From the NCBI RefSeq assembly GCF_003019035.1, contig NZ_CP027447.1: a DNA stretch of 64,000 nt. One strand, written 5' to 3'. Origin of the DNA: Escherichia coli. Its GTDB lineage: Bacteria > Pseudomonadota > Gammaproteobacteria > Enterobacterales > Enterobacteriaceae. This document shows positions 9,142 to 41,642 of this stretch, piece by piece; position 1 is the stretch's first letter, and every line of letters begins with the position of its first letter. The translations under genes were made by a program, and so were the position numbers. Under the pieces are notes generated by a model that was not told where the DNA came from, searched no databases, and saw nothing but the letters and a program-made list of their open reading frames with translations.

Positions 9142-9253
9142 AACGAATCCTGATAAATGATGTTGTGCTGTCTCGCATTTTATCAGTCACATTGGTGGGG
9201 GCAATGATTTCTCTGTTGTGGCACCGCCATTACCAGACGGCACCACAATGTTA

Positions 9254-10543
9254 TCAGGGATAGGTAACCTGGAAAGTACTGGTGGCTTTAAATTCGCCGG
9301 GTTCAATAGCAATATTCCCGTCTTGTTTTAATGTAGCCTGGAAATGAAGTGGATACGTTATACCGTCATCTTCCGGGTAAATCGCATCTGAATCGTTATT
9401 CTGCGTCTGGCCCGTATTATCTTTATAAACAGAAGTTGAATCATTAGGTTTCAGTATCATGAGGGCACTTTTACTGTTTGCTAATCCTTCAATCAATACC
9501 CCAACGCCTTTTGCTGCGCCATTTCCTGTGAGAGTGTTACCAAGGAGTTGCCTGTTTTCAGTACCAACCTTTGTTGAAACTAATTTTGTCTCGATATTAG
9601 TCACACGAACGCAGTTTTGAAGTGAAATATCAAAAGGAACCGGTGTGGCACCGTTTCTTATTTGTGCTTCACTATACTCGCCCATTTTTACCGTAGAACC
9701 AGTAACAGATGTTCCACTTAACATAGCTGTAAAACAAGTGGGATTACTTAATTTAATATTTAGTAGGTCAAAATCAACTCGAAGAAAATAGCTGTGTTCG
9801 TTAATGCCGATACCAGCACCATAAGCTTTAAATGAATATAAATAGTTTGATGAGCGCGATAATGAAACTTGTTGAGTTACTGTTGGATCAAAGTTGGTAT
9901 CTGTATAAAATTCGATGGTAAGATTTTGATAAATACCGCCTACAGCCCAATATTTGCTGGATGTGTTGGCATTGTTACAACTTTGGTATAATATGCTTTC
10001 GCTTGGGTTGTACCATGAAAAATATTGTTCTGCAGAATCACCAATATATATTCCTGGTGAACTAACGTTAGTTACAGTACCGTAAGCTGACCACATATTT
10101 GAAATTAATATTGTATAATACAAACCGGGAACAGATGTATTGAATAGTTTATGGTTACCATATCTTTTTCCAGAGTCAACCATTGCATTTTCGATACGCA
10201 TTGCCCCGCCACTGGTGTTATTGCTTCTGTTACAATAAAGAAAGCCTCCGCCAGAAGCAGTATCTAACTGACTCCAATGTAATTTCACCCCTGTTGGACC
10301 CAGTTGTGTTGGTTTATAAAATACTAAATTATTTGTACTGGTACCATACCTGAACACGACTGTCACATCTCCATTTGGCCCGGTTTCTCTCCATTTTTGA
10401 TCTGACGGACCAACGCCGTAGTTATTCCCAACAACATATCCTACGAAATCATCAGTGCCAGCACTCGCGGTATAACAACTCAAGCACAGAATTAAAAAAA
10501 GAAAATATCTGAAGAATGTCTTCATTTTCACTCCACCATCCAC
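9254..10543 (-). CDS. yadC: fimbrial tip adhesin-like protein
   Basis: 429-aa ORF with signal peptide; C-terminal donor-strand-type motif ...TSTFQVTYP; last gene of the yad operon. Alternative start at 10525 (MKTFFRY...) has the better SD (ggtggag). Confidence 0.85.
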
Positions 10544-10578
10544 TGCTGTAATAGTCGCAGTAATTTGTTTTTGGTATG

Positions 10579-11175
10579 TTACTCGTAGTAAATATCAATT
10601 AATACATGGCTTATGATTTGGCCGGGCATGACATTTAATACAGGGTTGATTTTTTGCATCCGTGTATAGAATTTCCAGGATGAATTGTTTAAATCAGCAG
10701 TCATCACCGGATAAATTGAACGAGAACTGCCCGCTGGGGTAAGAACATTAAATATATTAGCCGGGTCCTGAGTGGAAAATATTACTACACCTACGTTTTG
10801 AGCGCCGGCGACATTTTCATTTGCAAAAATTTGCTGAGAGCCTGTCGCCATCACGCCATTAAGCGGTTTAAAGTTAATATGTAACTGATTTAACACATTT
10901 CCAGAACCCTGGATGGCGCAGTCAGTCACAGTGATAGTGAACTCTCTCCCACCCGGATAATCATCTTCAGGTGCGACGTTACCAGAAAAATAATCCACAC
11001 CAACCACACCAAGGTCGATATTACCAAGGTTACTGAGGCCACTTTTACATGTACTGTTCTTGATATTGGCAACCATATCCACATCCAGCCCTGCATATAC
11101 AGGACTGGATGTGGCAAACAATAATGCCAGGAACAGACTTGTTTTTATCTTAATTTTTAGTTGAGAGGAAAGCAT
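10579..11175 (-). CDS. yadK: fimbrial minor subunit
   Basis: 198-aa ORF with signal peptide [28 protein letters not shown] and C-terminal pilin motif ...LIDIYYE. Confidence 0.88.
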
Positions 11176-11201
11176 AATCGGTCCCTGACTTTAATGGCCT
11201 G

Positions 11202-11807
11202 TTAGTTATAGGTGATAGAAAATGTTGCAGGTGCGGAAAACGGACCGGCAGTGATGTCGGTTTTGCTTTTATTTTTCTCTACCACCAGGCGTGCACTCAT
11301 AGGATGATATACTGACGTAGTTCCTGTTGCAGTGGAGATATTCACTTCCTGAGCGACTGGTGTTACGCAGCTAAATTGAGTCTTGCCGTCTGTACCAGGT
11401 GTCGTGGTATTCCATACTTCAACCGCAACAGCATTTGCTTTATCAGCAGCGGCGGAGCCGTTTGCAAAACCAGGCCCATCGTTGGCTGCTCCTTCACAAG
11501 TTGCGCGTTTAGTTAATTTTACGAGTGCTTTTTTATTAGGAATACCAGCACAATCCTTAAACTGTAACTTAAATATTTTAATTTTTGTTTTGGCATCAAT
11601 TTCAGGAATGTAAGCATCCCCAAATGCAATAACAGAAATAGGCTGATCATTGTCATCCACCAGGCTGGCGGTACAGGTTCCCGTCTCTACGGTTGCTTTA
11701 ACATTCAGCTTAACGCTATCGGTAGCTGCAAACAATTGGCTGGTGAATAGGGATGCCGCAAAAAAAACACCAGCGGGTAGTCCATAACATAATGTTTTAG
11801 ATTTCAT
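11202..11807 (-). CDS. yadL: fimbrial minor subunit
   Basis: ORF 11202..11816; start taken at MKSKTLCYG (11807); C-terminal pilin motif ...ATFSITYN. Confidence 0.88.
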   Translation of the reverse strand: MKSKTLCYGLPAGVFFAASLFTSQLFAATDSVKLNVKATVETGTCTASLVDDNDQPISVIAFGDAYIPEIDAKTKIKIFKLQFKDCAGIPNKKALVKLTKRATCEGAANDGPGFANGSAAADKANAVAVEVWNTTTPGTDGKTQFSCVTPVAQEVNISTATGTTSVYHPMSARLVVEKNKSKTDITAGPFSAPATFSITYN

Positions 11808-11821
11808 TATTATCATCCCTG

Positions 11822-12388
11822 TTATTCATAAATGAAATTGAAAGTTGCCTGGGCGCGGAAATCGCCAGGAACACCACTGCCAGCCGTGGTTTCGCGCAGT
11901 GCAACGGTCAGTTCAAGAGTTTTGTCTGTATCACTAATTTCCCATGGAATAAAACTCGGCGCACTGTTTGGGATTAAGAATGTCGAATCATCTTCACCAA
12001 GTGCTTTTATACCCATACCAATATAATTAGTTGTTGATGTAGTGTCAGAAGAGAGTGGAACAATTAATGCGGGAGTAGTTCCGGAAGCATTCCCACTGAG
12101 CCTGGTATTGATTTTGCTGACGCCTGTGGTACAACCGCTGGCAACCAGATTAAAATTCGCCTGTGCTTGAGTCGTTTTATTTGCAATTTTGTCCAGACCA
12201 ATAGTTCCTGGGAAAGTTAATGTGTAGGTGTCACTCCCATCAGGGGTGACATTGTCGCCTGATAACGTAATGTTACAAGTTGATGCTTTTACGGTTGCTG
12301 TAAAATCAACATTAATGTCTGTTGCAAGTACAGAGGATGATAAAAATAATCCAGTCAGTATTGCCAATTTATGCAGTGTTATTCTCAT
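11822..12388 (-). CDS. yadM: fimbrial minor subunit
   Basis: ORF 11822..12433; start taken at MRITLHKLAIL (12388), which avoids overlap with the htrE 3' end; C-terminal motif ...ATFNFIYE. Confidence 0.85.
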   Translation of the reverse strand: MRITLHKLAILTGLFLSSSVLATDINVDFTATVKASTCNITLSGDNVTPDGSDTYTLTFPGTIGLDKIANKTTQAQANFNLVASGCTTGVSKINTRLSGNASGTTPALIVPLSSDTTSTTNYIGMGIKALGEDDSTFLIPNSAPSFIPWEISDTDKTLELTVALRETTAGSGVPGDFRAQATFNFIYE

Positions 12389-12407
12389 TATGTGAAATTC
12401 CCTGTTG

Positions 12408-15008
12408 TTACTGAATCTGACAACTAATTCCATTCAGAATAATAGTTTGCGCTATTTTTTCTGGTGCTGCGCTCTGCTGGTAATGAGCAAGGCAAGTGAC
12501 AGGTTTACCGTCGTCAAGCCAGTTGATACGTATGTTACCTTGTTGTTCTATACCTCGAACAAAGGCCTGACCACCTTGCCCTACATTGCCAATAATATTT
12601 CCGTTCTCGTCATAAATATCTGCGGCAAACGGAATGTTTTTACCGTCAGTTCGCTTGATGTTCATAATCGCTGATTGTCCCTGAACTGTTTCAAAACCAG
12701 CAAAGACAACAGACCCTTGGCGGGGGACAGTAATAGCACTGGTACTTTTCAATTCAACGTCATTTTCCAGACCGTTAATATCGAGTGCAATTCGGTTTTC
12801 ATGATAAGGGGAGAGCGCGTTAGTAACACCATATCCCCAACGATCTATCGTACTATTACCATAGTTAATACGCGCCCCTTTAGCTCCTGGCGCTTGTACA
12901 ACGGCCAGAGTGTCTGAGTCGCTAAAGCTGTCATTACTGAAGGTCAGGCCGCCGCTATGTAAAACAAATCCGCCGTCGGTATTAAATGAGATTTGACGGC
13001 TATTATCACTGCTTGCGGAAACTGAACTGGAAAGAGTTCCCCAGGGAGATTCATAGCTTGCATATCCGCCGATATAGCCCAAATCATCACTGGATTTCAT
13101 CATCGAATAGCCTGTATTGACGCTATAACTGATATGGTTTTCGGTGCTATAACCACTACTGCTGATACTGAGTTGATTGCTGCCGTTGAAATCACTATTT
13201 AACTGAGTATCAATGCTCTGAAAACCAGAGTCGCGATGTTCTGAACCCAGTAACTTTTCGATAGGAATGCTAAAGCTTAGATAGATGCTGTCTTCATTAC
13301 CGCCGTCCTGGCTCCAGGACCGTTGGGCACTAATGCTGTAGCTTCCCCACGATGCGCTGTTACTATAACCAATGGAGTAGTTAGTATTATTTTGTCCGTC
13401 CGCCCAATAGTCAGACCAACTTCCGGCAAGATAGAATGAGCCATAGTCTTTCTTTTCAAACTTGAGGGGTTGGTTAATACTAACCGTAACCTGATTTTTC
13501 ATGCGTGAATAGTTACGCATATTTTTAGGTTCCAGGTCCTGTTCCGGATGTTTTACTTCATCGATCAATGTCAGTGCATCGTTAAGCCCCAGATAATTCT
13601 GGGTTGAATAACGGTAAGCGGCGATATTGAGCGAGGTTCTTGTATCTTCAAATAACTTATTCCAGGAGATGCGATAGCTTTGCCCGCGGTAGGTTTTATC
13701 GTCCGGAATTTGCACATCCGAGTGGGTTACATCGACTGAAAACGCACCGTACGCGGTATTCAGGCCAAGGCCCAACAGCCCGGCAGTATAGTTATTATCG
13801 GTAATTTGAATACCGGTATAACCTGTAAGATAGTTGTTCAGACCATAGTAGTAGCTGGCCTGGAACAAATTTGGCTCATTTTGAATATCGTCTTTTAATA
13901 CCTGACCAGCACTGATGTCCCATCTTCCAACACCAGGGCGTTGCATCTGAATTACCGAAGAAAATGGCTGGGAAAAAGTTCGTTTTGTGCCATCAGATTC
14001 TTCGATAGTGATAATGAGATCGCTGCCGTAGCCTGATGGGCTTAAATCATCAATAACAAATGCTCCCGGCGGCACGGTAGTTTCATAGATTTTATAACCA
14101 CCCTGGGTAATGGTGACTTTTGCGTTGGTGTTAGCGACACCATGAATAATAGGCGCAAAACTAGCTAACGCAGGCGGTAGCATTCGGCTGTCGCTGTATA
14201 AACGAATACCGCGAATACTGACAGCATCAAAGGTTTCCCCAGTTGTGTATGACTCACCCACTATTAACTGTGAACGCAAAGAGGCCAGGTCGCGCTGCAA
14301 ATAGCGATTCTGAAAATCGTAATCACTGCCTACATTGGTCATCCAGTTGTAGTTGCCGGTTGCGCGAAGCCGCCATGCCCCCAGATTTATACCGCCGTTA
14401 AATGCCGCATAAACACTGTCGTTTTTTCTGTCTGGAATTTCGCTGTGATATGCGTTCACATTGTAGGCCAGCATTGCGGCGTTAATACCGTTTTCCCACA
14501 ATGACGGATCAACATAGTTTTGGTAATTCTTCATTATCCAGGCTTGAGGAACGTTGATATCCAGCCGTTGATCGTTGACGTCATAATGAACTGAAGCCTG
14601 GGGAATGATATTCGCCAAATCTAGACAATCTCCGAGTTCGCCTTCGCGCTGTAGAAGGATGGAATTCTCGGCATTTATATCTGGTCTATTAATGTGAAAC
14701 TGCAATAAATTCTTCAGGGTGATACAAGCCTGCGCATTCTTCTTACCTTCGAGGGTAATAAAGGAAATGCTTTGGTTGATAACCGGTTGATCATTGATAT
14801 AAACACTGACGTCATACACGCCGGGCAAGGTAGGGTTACCTTCGGTATACCGACTAAGGTCGATGTTAGAAGCATCTTGCCCCATCAAAAAGGTATTATC
14901 ATATTCAACGTGTTCAGCGCTTATGGCACAGGGGCTTAATAGCAATGCGCAAAACGAGGCTATATATGTAAGTTTGTTATTATGCGTTTTTATGATTTTT
15001 CTGGACAC
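12408..15008 (-). CDS. htrE: outer-membrane fimbrial usher
   Basis: 866-aa ORF MSRKIIKTHNNKLTYIASFCALLLSPCAISAEHVEYDNTFLMG...; size and position typical of PapC/FimD-family ushers. Confidence 0.93.
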   Translation of the reverse strand: MSRKIIKTHNNKLTYIASFCALLLSPCAISAEHVEYDNTFLMGQDASNIDLSRYTEGNPTLPGVYDVSVYINDQPVINQSISFITLEGKKNAQACITLKNLLQFHINRPDINAENSILLQREGELGDCLDLANIIPQASVHYDVNDQRLDINVPQAWIMKNYQNYVDPSLWENGINAAMLAYNVNAYHSEIPDRKNDSVYAAFNGGINLGAWRLRATGNYNWMTNVGSDYDFQNRYLQRDLASLRSQLIVGESYTTGETFDAVSIRGIRLYSDSRMLPPALASFAPIIHGVANTNAKVTITQGGYKIYETTVPPGAFVIDDLSPSGYGSDLIITIEESDGTKRTFSQPFSSVIQMQRPGVGRWDISAGQVLKDDIQNEPNLFQASYYYGLNNYLTGYTGIQITDNNYTAGLLGLGLNTAYGAFSVDVTHSDVQIPDDKTYRGQSYRISWNKLFEDTRTSLNIAAYRYSTQNYLGLNDALTLIDEVKHPEQDLEPKNMRNYSRMKNQVTVSINQPLKFEKKDYGSFYLAGSWSDYWADGQNNTNYSIGYSNSASWGSYSISAQRSWSQDGGNEDSIYLSFSIPIEKLLGSEHRDSGFQSIDTQLNSDFNGSNQLSISSSGYSTENHISYSVNTGYSMMKSSDDLGYIGGYASYESPWGTLSSSVSASSDNSRQISFNTDGGFVLHSGGLTFSNDSFSDSDTLAVVQAPGAKGARINYGNSTIDRWGYGVTNALSPYHENRIALDINGLENDVELKSTSAITVPRQGSVVFAGFETVQGQSAIMNIKRTDGKNIPFAADIYDENGNIIGNVGQGGQAFVRGIEQQGNIRINWLDDGKPVTCLAHYQQSAAPEKIAQTIILNGISCQIQ

Positions 15009-15042
15009 GTTGTGCTTCCTGCTGCGTTTATTCCTGATTTAG

Positions 15043-15783
15043 TTACAGGCTGGCATTGCCTTCAATTGCACCACCAAAGTCATTTATGGCGAAGAAATGC
15101 ACTTTGGCAGAACTTGCTTTACCACTCATGCCTTTTATGTAGAAGGTTTCTTCACTCAGCGGGGCTACCATTTTTACATCCAGGGGGTAGGTTTTGCCAT
15201 TGGCGACTAAATCACCACTACTGAATGAGACGTGATACGGTGTCGGATTTGCGACGCGCAATGCAGTTTTTCCAGCAGAGGTTGCCCATGACCATTTCAG
15301 TGCTGCGGGTGCATCTGATGGCAGTCCGTTTAAACCTTCCGGGCGATAAAATAATTTGATACGCGTACGGAATGCCAATTGCAGAAGACTCTGGTTGGCG
15401 ACTTTATCTGCGTCAGGTTTGGGTGGAACCTCGAGTACGTTAAACCAGAAAACACTTTCTCGGTCTTTTGGCAGCGGTGAGGAAGCCGTGTACATCAATT
15501 TAATAGTTTGACCACGTTTGGCATCAATTCGCGAAACAGGAGGGGTGGCGGTAAATGGGACAGTAATACTCCCTGGTTCAGCACTATCGTCGCCAGTATC
15601 CAGCCAGCTCTGAACGAGTAACGGATTATTCCCCTTATTTTCCAGCCGAACATTAACGCTTTTTTCATTACTTTTATAAATTACGCGAGTTCCTGAAATT
15701 ACGATATCTGCTATTGCCGATGCGCTTAAGCTCATACAAGTGGCGAAGCATACAGCTGCAGTATGTTTAGCGTTTAAAAACAT
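15043..15783 (-). CDS. yadV: periplasmic fimbrial chaperone (PapD-like)
   Basis: 246-aa ORF with signal peptide; PapD-like chaperone between usher and major subunit genes. Confidence 0.92.
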   Translation of the reverse strand: MFLNAKHTAAVCFATCMSLSASAIADIVISGTRVIYKSNEKSVNVRLENKGNNPLLVQSWLDTGDDSAEPGSITVPFTATPPVSRIDAKRGQTIKLMYTASSPLPKDRESVFWFNVLEVPPKPDADKVANQSLLQLAFRTRIKLFYRPEGLNGLPSDAPAALKWSWATSAGKTALRVANPTPYHVSFSSGDLVANGKTYPLDVKMVAPLSEETFYIKGMSGKASSAKVHFFAINDFGGAIEGNASL

Positions 15784-15813
15784 AAACCATTCCCGACAGA
15801 GTTAATTAAAATA

Positions 15814-15848
15814 GGGAGTAACATTCCACTATTAAGAAAGTTACTCCC
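15814..15848 (-). terminator. intra-operon stem-loop (partial terminator/attenuator) between major pilin gene yadN and chaperone gene yadV
   Basis: Inverted repeat gggagtaac (15814..15822) / gttactccc (15840..15848); on the minus-strand transcript it is followed by uauuuuaauu. Confidence 0.45.
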
Positions 15849-15880
15849 ATAGATATTCAGTTTATGAATCTAACGAAGGA

Positions 15881-16465
15881 TTACTGGTAAGTAATGGTAT
15901 ATGCAGTGTTGGTTTTAACATAACCAGCAGTTGGTGCCTGGCTTGCTTCAGCACGGACATAGGATGCTTTAAAATCATAGGTTGCAGATTTAGTCGTAGC
16001 GTCCAGCGTTTTTGTGTAAATATCGCCTGGGTTGTTAATTTGAACCTGTTTGATAGTGGAACCATCAATATTGTGCAGGGCAATATTTACGCCGTCAGAA
16101 GGCGTGTTAATAGACATATCGTTGTTCAGAGTCCCTTTGCTGTTGCCAAAGAACACGGAACCGAAGGTCATTTTTGCGGTGCTACCAGGATTCGGGTTTG
16201 CATTGCTGCAGTCAACGGTGATGCTGAAAGGTTTAGCTTTAGCACCTACGGTGTCATTCAGTACGCCAGCACTGATTTCAGCAACAGTTGCAGTTTGCAG
16301 AAGCACCAGGCCATCTTTGTTGCCACCATCAACACGGGTTTCACAGGTGTTATCAACTACCAGACCACTGATATTTAATTGGCCACCGTCCAGTGCAGCA
16401 GAAGCATTACCAGCAACCATTGCTAACATCAAGCTGGACAGCGCAAAACCTAATTTTTTAGACAT
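15881..16465 (-). CDS. yadN: fimbrial major subunit
   Basis: ORF 15881..16489; start taken at [23 protein letters not shown] (16465) preceded by SD aagga; C-terminal motif ...AYTITYQ. Confidence 0.9.
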
Positions 16466-16772
16466 AATAATCCTTGAATAATATTCCATGAGTTTAACTT
16501 TAATCAGCCCCCCTCAAGCAGGAAGTCCCGAGAAAGAAAAGGTGAATGGTTTGTTAATGATGGATGTTTGGATTTACCGAATGTAACATCTGTTCATCAT
16601 TAGGGGAGTATTGTGCACATTTAATATTAAATATCCACTTAATTCAATTTTAAGTAAAACTAAATATATAATGTGACGATAATGGTGTATATGGGCGGGG
16701 CTGCCAAGTGGGGTAAAATATTATATGTTTATGATTATATTCTGGGGCGAATTAATTGCAATTGTGGGAAGG

Positions 16773-20340: not shown

Positions 20341-21590
<1,250 letters not shown>

Positions 21591-38570: not shown

Positions 38571-40088
38571 ATGGCACAGATTGATTTCCGAAAAAAAATA
38601 AACTGGCATCGTCGTTACCGTTCACCGCAGGGCGTTAAAACCGAACATGAGATTCTGCGGATCTTCGAGAGCGATCGCGGGCGTATCATCAACTCTCCGG
38701 CAATTCGTCGTCTGCAACAAAAGACCCAGGTTTTTCCACTGGAGCGCAATGCCGCCGTGCGCACGCGTCTTACCCACTCGATGGAAGTCCAGCAGGTGGG
38801 GCGTTATATCGCTAAAGAGATTTTAAGCCGCCTGAAAGAGCTTAAATTACTGGAGGCGTATGGTCTCGATGAACTGACCGGGCCCTTTGAAAGCATTGTT
38901 GAGATGTCATGCCTGATGCACGATATCGGCAATCCGCCGTTTGGTCATTTTGGCGAAGCGGCGATAAATGACTGGTTTCGCCAGCGTTTGCACCCGGAAG
39001 ATGCCGAAAGCCAGCCTCTGACTGACGATCGCTGCAGCGTGGCAGCACTACGTTTACGGGACGGGGAAGAACCGCTTAACAAGCTGCGGCGCAAAATACG
39101 TCAGGACTTATGTCATTTTGAGGGGAATGCACAAGGCATTCGTCTGGTGCATACATTGATGCGGATGAATCTCACCTGGGCACAGGTTGGCGGTATTTTA
39201 AAATATACTCGTCCGGCGTGGTGGCGTGGTGAAACGCCTGAGACACATCACTATTTAATGAAAAAGCCGGGTTATTATCTTTCTGAGGAAGCCTATATTG
39301 CCCGGTTGCGTAAAGAACTTAATTTGGCGCTTTACAGTCGTTTTCCATTAACGTGGATTATGGAAGCTGCCGACGACATCTCCTATTGTGTGGCAGATCT
39401 TGAAGATGCGGTAGAGAAAAGAATATTTACCGTTGAGCAGCTTTATCATCATTTGCACGAAGCGTGGGGCCAGCATGAGAAAGGTTCGCTCTTTTCGCTG
39501 GTGGTTGAAAATGCCTGGGAAAAATCACGCTCAAATAGTTTAAGCCGCAGTACGGAAGATCAGTTTTTTATGTATTTAAGGGTAAACACTCTAAATAAAC
39601 TGGTACCCTACGCGGCACAACGATTTATTGATAATCTGCCTGCGATTTTCGCCGGAACGTTTAATCATGCATTATTGGAAGATGCCAGCGAATGCAGCGA
39701 TCTTCTTAAGCTTTATAAAAATGTCGCTGTAAAACATGTGTTTAGCCATCCAGATGTCGAGCAGCTTGAATTGCAGGGCTATCGGGTCATTAGCGGATTA
39801 TTAGAGATTTATCGCCCTTTATTAAGCCTGTCGTTATCAGACTTTACTGAACTGGTAGAAAAAGAACGGGTGAAACGTTTCCCTATTGAATCGCGCTTAT
39901 TCCACAAACTCTCGACGCGCCATCGGCTGGCCTATGTCGAGGCTGTCAGTAAATTACCGTCAGATTCTCCTGAGTTTCCGCTATGGGAATATTATTACCG
40001 TTGCCGCCTGCTGCAGGATTATATCAGCGGTATGACCGACCTCTATGCCTGGGATGAATACCGACGTCTGATGGCCGTAGAACAATAA
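38571..40088 (+). CDS. dgt: dGTP triphosphohydrolase
   Basis: 505-aa [24 protein letters not shown]...; HD-domain motif [13 protein letters not shown]. Confidence 0.95.
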
Positions 40089-40144
40089 CCAGGCTTTTGT
40101 AAAGACGAACAATAAATTTTTACCTTTTGCAGAAACTTTAGTTC

Positions 40145-40172
40145 GGAACTTCGCGCTATAAAACGAATCTGA
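40145..40172 (+). promoter_or_regulatory. sigmaE-type promoter of degP (with upstream GTAAA CpxR-like half-sites)
   Basis: -35 ggaactt (40145..40151), 16-nt spacer, -10 tctga (40168..40172), about 45 nt upstream of the degP ATG; gtaaa at 40099..40103 upstream. Matches the known sigmaE/Cpx control of degP. Confidence 0.6.
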
Positions 40173-40217
40173 AGAACACAGCAATTTTGCGTTATCTGTT
40201 AATCGAGACTGAAATAC

Positions 40218-41642
40218 ATGAAAAAAACCACATTAGCACTGAGTGCACTGGCTCTGAGTTTAGGTTTGGCGTTATCTCCGCTCTCTGCAACGGCGGCTGA
40301 GACTTCTTCAGCATCGACAGCCCAGCAGATGCCAAGCCTTGCACCGATGCTCGAAAAGGTGATGCCTTCAGTGGTCAGCATTAACGTAGAAGGTAGCACA
40401 ACCGTTAATACGCCGCGTATGCCGCGTAATTTCCAGCAGTTCTTCGGTGATGATTCTCCGTTCTGCCAGGAAGGTTCTCCGTTCCAGAGTTCTCCGTTCT
40501 GCCAGGGTGGCCTGGGCGGTAATGGTGGCGGCCAGCAACAGAAATTCATGGCGCTGGGTTCCGGCGTCATCATTGATGCCGATAAAGGCTATGTCGTCAC
40601 CAACAACCACGTTGTTGATAACGCGACGGTGATTAAAGTCCAACTGAGCGATGGCCGTAAGTTTGACGCGAAGATGGTTGGCAAAGATCCGCGCTCTGAT
40701 ATCGCGCTGATCCAGATCCAGAACCCGAAAAACCTGACCGCAATTAAGATGGCGGATTCTGATGCACTGCGCGTGGGTGATTACACCGTAGCGATTGGTA
40801 ACCCGTTTGGTCTGGGCGAGACGGTAACTTCCGGGATTGTCTCTGCGCTGGGGCGTAGCGGCCTGAATGCCGAAAACTACGAAAACTTCATCCAGACCGA
40901 TGCAGCGATTAACCGTGGTAACTCCGGTGGTGCGCTGGTTAACCTGAACGGTGAACTGATCGGTATCAACACCGCGATCCTCGCACCGGACGGCGGCAAC
41001 ATCGGTATCGGTTTTGCTATCCCGAGCAACATGGTGAAAAACCTGACCTCGCAGATGGTGGAATACGGCCAGGTGAAACGCGGTGAGTTGGGTATTATGG
41101 GCACTGAGCTGAACTCCGATCTGGCGAAAGCGATGAAAGTTGACGCCCAGCGCGGTGCTTTCGTAAGCCAGGTTCTGCCGAATTCTTCCGCCGCGAAAGC
41201 GGGCATTAAAGCGGGTGATGTGATCACCTCACTGAACGGTAAGCCAATCAGCAGCTTTGCCGCACTGCGTGCTCAGGTGGGCACTATGCCGGTAGGTAGC
41301 AAACTGACCCTGGGCTTACTGCGCGACGGGAAGCAGGTTAACGTGAACCTGGAACTTCAGCAGAGCAGCCAGAATCAGGTTGATTCCAGCACCATCTTCA
41401 ACGGCATTGAAGGCGCTGAGATGAGTAACAAAGGCAAAGATCAGGGCGTGGTGGTGAACAACGTGAAAACGGGCACTCCGGCTGCGCAGATCGGCCTGAA
41501 GAAAGGTGATGTGATTATTGGCGCGAACCAGCAGGCAGTGAAAAACATCGCTGAACTGCGTAAAGTTCTCGACAGCAAACCGTCTGTGCTGGCACTGAAC
41601 ATTCAGCGCGGCGACAGCACCATCTACCTGTTAATGCAGTAA
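40218..41642 (+). CDS. degP: periplasmic serine endoprotease/chaperone DegP (HtrA)
   Basis: 474-aa ORF with signal peptide; catalytic Ser motif GNSGGAL, His and Asp of the triad present; two PDZ domains. Confidence 0.96.
   Translation: MKKTTLALSALALSLGLALSPLSATAAETSSASTAQQMPSLAPMLEKVMPSVVSINVEGSTTVNTPRMPRNFQQFFGDDSPFCQEGSPFQSSPFCQGGLGGNGGGQQQKFMALGSGVIIDADKGYVVTNNHVVDNATVIKVQLSDGRKFDAKMVGKDPRSDIALIQIQNPKNLTAIKMADSDALRVGDYTVAIGNPFGLGETVTSGIVSALGRSGLNAENYENFIQTDAAINRGNSGGALVNLNGELIGINTAILAPDGGNIGIGFAIPSNMVKNLTSQMVEYGQVKRGELGIMGTELNSDLAKAMKVDAQRGAFVSQVLPNSSAAKAGIKAGDVITSLNGKPISSFAALRAQVGTMPVGSKLTLGLLRDGKQVNVNLELQQSSQNQVDSSTIFNGIEGAEMSNKGKDQGVVVNNVKTGTPAAQIGLKKGDVIIGANQQAVKNIAELRKVLDSKPSVLALNIQRGDSTIYLLMQ

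Follow-up and report, generated by a model that had tools for sequence, protein, structure and literature searches.

The native, strongly conserved envelope-stress promoter of degP in an Escherichia coli chromosome segment

Positions 40145-40172 of the window, which is the entire 64,000-nucleotide stretch of DNA analyzed here, were found to carry the native envelope-stress promoter of degP, an element that is long known and strongly conserved. Both the sigmaE dependence and the CpxR dependence of degP expression are reported in the literature, and the promoter in this sequence is very probably one that starts at 40178 under sigmaE and is activated by CpxR through a block lying upstream of it.

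The degP locus and its sigmaE promoter

The window is E. coli chromosome and is colinear with the K-12 MG1655 segment from approximately 140.8 to 204.7 kb, where a K-12 coordinate equals the window coordinate plus 140666. The dgt gene occupies 38571-40088 (its stop codon ends at 40088) and is separated by a gap of 129 bp from the ATG of degP (htrA) at 40218. The degP coding sequence (40218-41642, plus strand, 474 aa) was taken from the list of open reading frames and from the degP annotation in E. coli genomes, and all but two of 5426 complete E. coli genomes (5424) contain the dgt-degP locus. A minus-strand reading frame at 39981-40184 (67 aa, TTG start) overlaps the conserved regulatory DNA and was discarded as a mechanical ORF only. 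Identity to K-12 is 96-99.5% except at the yad fimbrial genes (window positions ~7270-16500, an operon region running from yadC to yadN and including htrE). This part shows 78-85% identity, contains about 1.9 kb (10197-12116) that does not align to K-12, and is a locally hypervariable fimbrial locus.

The sigmaE -35 element GGAACTT is located at 40145-40151 on the plus strand (-33 to -27) and carries all seven consensus bases. It is followed by a 16-nt spacer (cgcgctataaaacgaa / CGCGCTATAAAACGAA) at 40152-40167 and by the -10 element TCTGA at 40168-40172 (-10 to -6, plus strand), whose last base precedes the degP ATG by 46 nt. The initial annotation had read exactly this arrangement upstream of degP, and it proved to be unique in the window. 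Counting the two strands of the 64-kb window (128 kb), GGAACTT-N16-TCTGA has a single exact match against 0.01 expected from dinucleotide-preserving shuffles, and allowing one mismatch still returns a single occurrence against 0.20 expected. The description of the promoter as near-consensus holds for the -35 element, whereas the -10 element keeps only three of the five bases of the current consensus TCAAA (the T, the C and the final A). The match was scored by consensus pattern. The older -10 consensus TCTGA was presumably derived in part from degP itself, and the term near-consensus is therefore slightly circular for this element. When the promoter sequence was looked for in the literature, the sole match was a primer in a Chlamydia paper.

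Among the 28 mapped sigmaE promoters of Rhodius et al. 2006, a 16-nt spacer is strongly preferred together with a discriminator of 5 or 6 nt, a distance of 26 or 27 nt from the -35 element to +1 and a purine start; the ranges for sigmaE promoters are 15-19 nt for the spacer and 25-28 nt from the -35 element to +1. The degP promoter takes the preferred value in all four respects, with a 16-nt spacer, a 5-nt discriminator, 26 nt from the -35 element to +1 and an A as the first transcribed base. It is also among the 60 sigmaE-dependent promoters of the Rhodius/Mutalik library, shows activity in vivo when sigmaE is at its basal level, and belongs to the sigmaE core regulon.

The main degP transcription start is the A at 40178 on the plus strand (K-12 180844), which is located downstream of both elements, 5 nt from TCTGA and 26 nt from GGAACTT, and was mapped in two independent genome-wide data sets. 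In the data of Kim et al. 2012 (PMC3415461, supplementary file 2), degP has a single start at 180844 and a 5'UTR of 40 nt, and the upstream sequence printed there ends in GGAACTTCAGGCTATAAAACGAATCTGAAGAACA. The Cappable-seq data (PMC4782308) place the start at the same base with a score of 41.6, which is by far the strongest in the region. The start thus does not map to a different promoter from the one proposed in the initial annotation. Two other nearby plus-strand starts in the Cappable-seq data, at 180669 (score 1.8) and 180283 (score 1.6), are both weak. The former corresponds to the G at 40003 and would give a degP 5'UTR of 215 nt. A -10-like hexamer TATTAT, read from the sequence at 39990-39995 on the plus strand, is a candidate promoter element for this start. 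A scan of 39900-40400 for sigma70 promoters and terminators called neither a sigma70-type promoter nor an intrinsic terminator, and thus gave no evidence for a dgt terminator or a canonical sigma70 promoter.

Consensus matches can in general arise by chance, and a looser match elsewhere in the window does not have a mapped start. The possibility that GGAACTT-N16-TCTGA is itself such a match without promoter function is nevertheless negligible, as only 0.01 occurrences are expected, the start was mapped at the exact predicted distance and the elements are conserved in 80 species; the start-site maps alone already refute it. The looser motif, GGAACTT-N17-TCTTA, is located at 20367-20395 on the minus strand at the 3' end of sfsA, roughly 200 bp upstream of dksA. 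The Cappable-seq list contains no start near its K-12 equivalent, and the motif was set aside as a probable chance match or else a promoter active only under stress.

The degP promoter of K-12 has the same locus, the same start site and the same curated CpxR sites, and differs from that of the window only in a spacer dinucleotide. Across 40060-40240 the two sequences differ at two bases, 40153-54, which are GC in the window and AG in K-12 (the spacer reads CGCG versus CAGG), and are otherwise identical. Of 5424 complete E. coli genomes, 4023 (~74%) carry the window allele without any difference across 71 bases, and the GC form is also found in other genera. As the window form is the E. coli majority form and is shared with other genera, K-12 carries a minority, derived allele. 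The laboratory strain MG1655 therefore has a derived allele in its own model promoter.

CpxR sites and conservation of the upstream block

Two CpxR sites of degP, degP1 and degP2, are listed among the 41 known CpxR sites in Table S1 of PMC9600279, where they are credited to De Wulf et al. 2002. The proximal site degP1 (GTAAAGACGAACAAT) was located at 40099-40113 on the plus strand, spanning -79 to -65 with its centre at -72. The distal site degP2 (GTAAATTACCGTCAG) was located at 39949-39963 on the plus strand inside the dgt coding sequence, at -229 to -215 from the main start. It had been missed in the initial annotation although it is the better-scoring of the two and the top CpxR match of the region. 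Using a CpxR weight matrix built from the 39 other known sites, with both degP sites left out, degP2 scores 12.1 bits and ranks 11th of about 128,000 window positions, whereas degP1 scores 6.3 bits and is equalled or exceeded at 180 window positions. The low score of degP1 reflects a weak match, so that sequence alone does not suffice to identify the proximal site. The distal site reads GTAAA-N5-GTCAG, while the proximal site opens with a perfect GTAAA followed by ACAAT, which matches GTAAA at two of five positions. Relative to the weak start at 40003, degP2 spans -54 to -40 and may possibly serve that start.

The initial annotation had proposed several GTAAA motifs upstream of the sigmaE promoter as possible CpxR half-sites. 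On the plus strand within 40099-40172 GTAAA occurs only once, at 40099-40103, and a plural can be upheld only if the inverted copy TTTAC at 40119-40123 (-59 to -55), 15 nt from the first, is counted. The assignment to CpxR is borne out in so far as the GTAAA at 40099 opens the curated degP1 site, but the second half ACAAT does not complete a canonical direct repeat. GTAAA is present at 2.7 copies per kb in the window on both strands, and two copies within 25 bp are uncommon but not striking.

The dependence of degP on both pathways, which had also been proposed, agrees with the published data. Besides its membership in the sigmaE library, degP is described in reviews as a joint sigmaE and Cpx target; its mRNA falls by log2 2.2-2.5 (4.5- to 5.7-fold) on deletion of cpxR and rises 26- to 32-fold on Cpx activation. 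In one CpxR ChIP-exo study degP is absent from the direct targets, and the supplements of that study give no degP peak coordinates.

A genome scan with DegP provided 80 loci from 80 Enterobacteriaceae species (including members of Escherichia, Salmonella, Citrobacter, Enterobacter, Klebsiella, Kluyvera, Kosakonia, Buttiauxella, Mangrovibacter and Shimwellia), for which the 320 nt preceding the degP start codon were aligned. Mean identity to the window base is 0.57 at dgt third codon positions, 0.34 from the stop codon to the CpxR box, 0.60 in the linker between the box and the -35 element and 0.51 in the discriminator. It reaches 1.00 for both GTAAA and TTTAC, 0.92 for ACAAT, 0.97 for the -35 element and 0.94 for the -10 element. 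Of the 78 species that matched the pattern search, 75 have a sigmaE spacer of 16 nt, 61 have GGAACTT (GGAACTA or TGAACTT in the remainder) and 67 have TCTGA.

The conserved upstream activator block (TTTGTAAAGACGAACAATAAATTTTTACCTTTT, 40096-40128, plus strand) contains degP1 and the inverted GTAAA and has a mean identity of 0.90 over the 80 species. Its consensus is TTGTAAAGA-N4-CAATA-N3-TTTTAC-TTTT, of which GTAAAGA-N4-CAATA-N3-TTTTAC is nearly invariant. The block was found in all 80 species, 71 of which fit the strict pattern while the other nine are off at one position, and in each of these 71 the -35 element follows the start of the box at a distance of 45 or 46 bp. At the degP2 position only 11 of 77 species, most of them Escherichia together with some Citrobacter, reach a score of 8 bits or more, and the distal site was accordingly rejected as the conserved key element. 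With degP2 rarely kept and the proximal block fixed, the conserved and positionally fixed element is the weak-scoring proximal block. In Intestinirhabdus alba, an insertion of approximately 80 bp separates the dgt stop codon from the CpxR box. The module from box to promoter is intact despite this insertion, which indicates that it behaves as a unit. CpxR would here read a site composed of one canonical, one degenerate and one inverted pentamer, all invariant in 80 species.

The A/T tract and the TATAAA hexamer

The A/T-rich part of the block (CAATAAATTTTTAC, -69 to -55) may be an UP element. In its stronger form, where this tract serves mainly as an UP element for the alpha C-terminal domains and only the GTAAA at -79 is CpxR-specific, we regard this explanation as improbable. 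A/T-rich UP sequences are common in sigmaE promoters, where conserved elements occur at -48/-49 and -57/-58 and more distal subsites lie beyond them, and both the misfit of ACAAT and the inverted TTTAC to a direct-repeat CpxR model and the low matrix score are consistent with it. However, the block is invariant at specific bases that include C and G (CAAT, TTTAC) and is not merely A/T-rich, its pentamers lie on a 10-bp phase with GTAAA, and the complete 15-mer is listed among the curated CpxR sites. The two roles are in any case compatible and not exclusive, and CpxR activation through the block is the reading retained here.

A further explanation concerns TATAAA at 40157-40162 within the sigmaE spacer, which could be the -10 element of a second, overlapping promoter that is sigmaE-independent, presumably of the sigma70 type, and starts at the G of TCTGA (40171). 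We consider this a rather unlikely arrangement for E. coli. It is similarly doubtful that such a promoter would be the equivalent of Salmonella htrAp2, activated by CpxR at 40099-40123 centred at about -60 to -65 from the 40171 start, and we give only limited credence to the corollary that Cpx control is at least partly independent of sigmaE, an arrangement that can coexist with the sigmaE promoter. Several observations speak for it. A start with a 47-nt UTR is used in Salmonella that is unseen in the E. coli maps. It precedes the sigmaE start by 7 nt and falls on the G of TCTGA. One study found the 47-nt transcript to be made constitutively and the 40-nt transcript to be made only under stress. 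In Klebsiella pneumoniae a start was found on the same G (25 reads) with another 9 nt downstream (11 reads). In both Salmonella and Klebsiella the start on this G is 9 nt downstream of TATAAA. The hexamer is kept in 59 of 78 species with an identity of 0.91, whereas sigmaE spacers are normally described as very little conserved, although the conservation of TATAAA may reflect an A/T preference in the sigmaE spacer or limited divergence among the genera. There is also a precedent in psd, which has separate sigmaE and CpxR-activated promoters. Danese et al. reportedly suggested in 1995 that Cpx may act together with forms of RNA polymerase besides the sigmaE holoenzyme.

The E. coli evidence argues against a second promoter, as both K-12 data sets have no start at 180837, the gap of 8 nt between TATAAA and the putative start is long and, in keeping with the empty scan of 39900-40400, TATAAA agrees with the sigma70 -10 hexamer at five of six positions but has no acceptable -35 hexamer. 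A version in which the E. coli promoter at 40171 fires only under Cpx induction, outside the standard-growth start maps, and GTAAA-N15-TTTAC acts as a non-canonical CpxR architecture seems equally tentative to us. For E. coli, an overlapping sigmaE-independent promoter at TATAAA is thus a minority hypothesis, and the single sigmaE start at 40178 with upstream CpxR activation remains the preferred reading.

Proposed control and comparison with other systems

Under the preferred reading, RNA polymerase with sigmaE (RpoE) would recognize GGAACTT and TCTGA at the optimal distance of 16 nt and start at the A at 40178. Phosphorylated CpxR would bind the invariant block from GTAAA at -79 to TTTAC at -55 and thereby raise transcription. 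This is the position of a class I activator, from which CpxR most likely contacts the alpha C-terminal domain of RNA polymerase, and it may aid the sigmaE holoenzyme, the sigma70 holoenzyme or both. The A/T tract at -69 to -55 coincides with the sigmaE UP-element zone, where CpxR and the alpha C-terminal domain may share the DNA or cooperate on it. The gene would in this way respond to misfolded outer-membrane proteins, with sigmaE freed by the DegS/RseP cascade, and also to periplasmic or inner-membrane stress through CpxA-CpxR.

A close comparison is the htrA region of Salmonella enterica (htrAp1, p2, p3 and a fourU thermometer), which has a homologous sigmaE promoter with a 40-nt UTR, a thermometer family match and an upstream start. 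The 215-nt UTR of the htrAp1 transcript given by that upstream start (PMC5602114) equals in length the one expected from the weak E. coli start at 40003. The distal CpxR site, in contrast, is not conserved in Salmonella, and the anti-fourU strand has C in E. coli for U in Salmonella.

The thermometer match in the window (HtrA 5'UTR RNA thermometer, Rfam RF02700) covers 40178-40223 on the plus strand and is full length (1-46), scoring 77 bits where the gathering score is 52, with an E-value of 2.6e-16. It starts exactly at the mapped start, and the Shine-Dalgarno sequence GAGA (40205-40208, plus strand) lies within it. The predicted hairpin is weaker in the window, with -3.0 kcal/mol compared to -5.8 in Salmonella, and the window value is no better than that of shuffled sequences (z = +0.95). 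The weakening is attributable to the C at 40209, which is U in Salmonella and faces an A of the stem. On these folding predictions, the E. coli thermosensor may be weaker or non-functional.

The psd-mscM promoter region of E. coli likewise places an envelope gene under dual sigmaE and CpxR control, with regulatory sites that reach into the coding sequence of the upstream gene. The two differ in that psd has two promoters with distinct starts, whereas at degP a single strong start is mapped in E. coli and the CpxR box precedes the sigmaE promoter.

In itself the finding adds nothing new, being textbook biology in which a real, mapped promoter was recovered from raw sequence. The degP gene is the founding example of a gene under both envelope-stress pathways, and this makes the locus a useful positive control for reading promoters from raw sequence.
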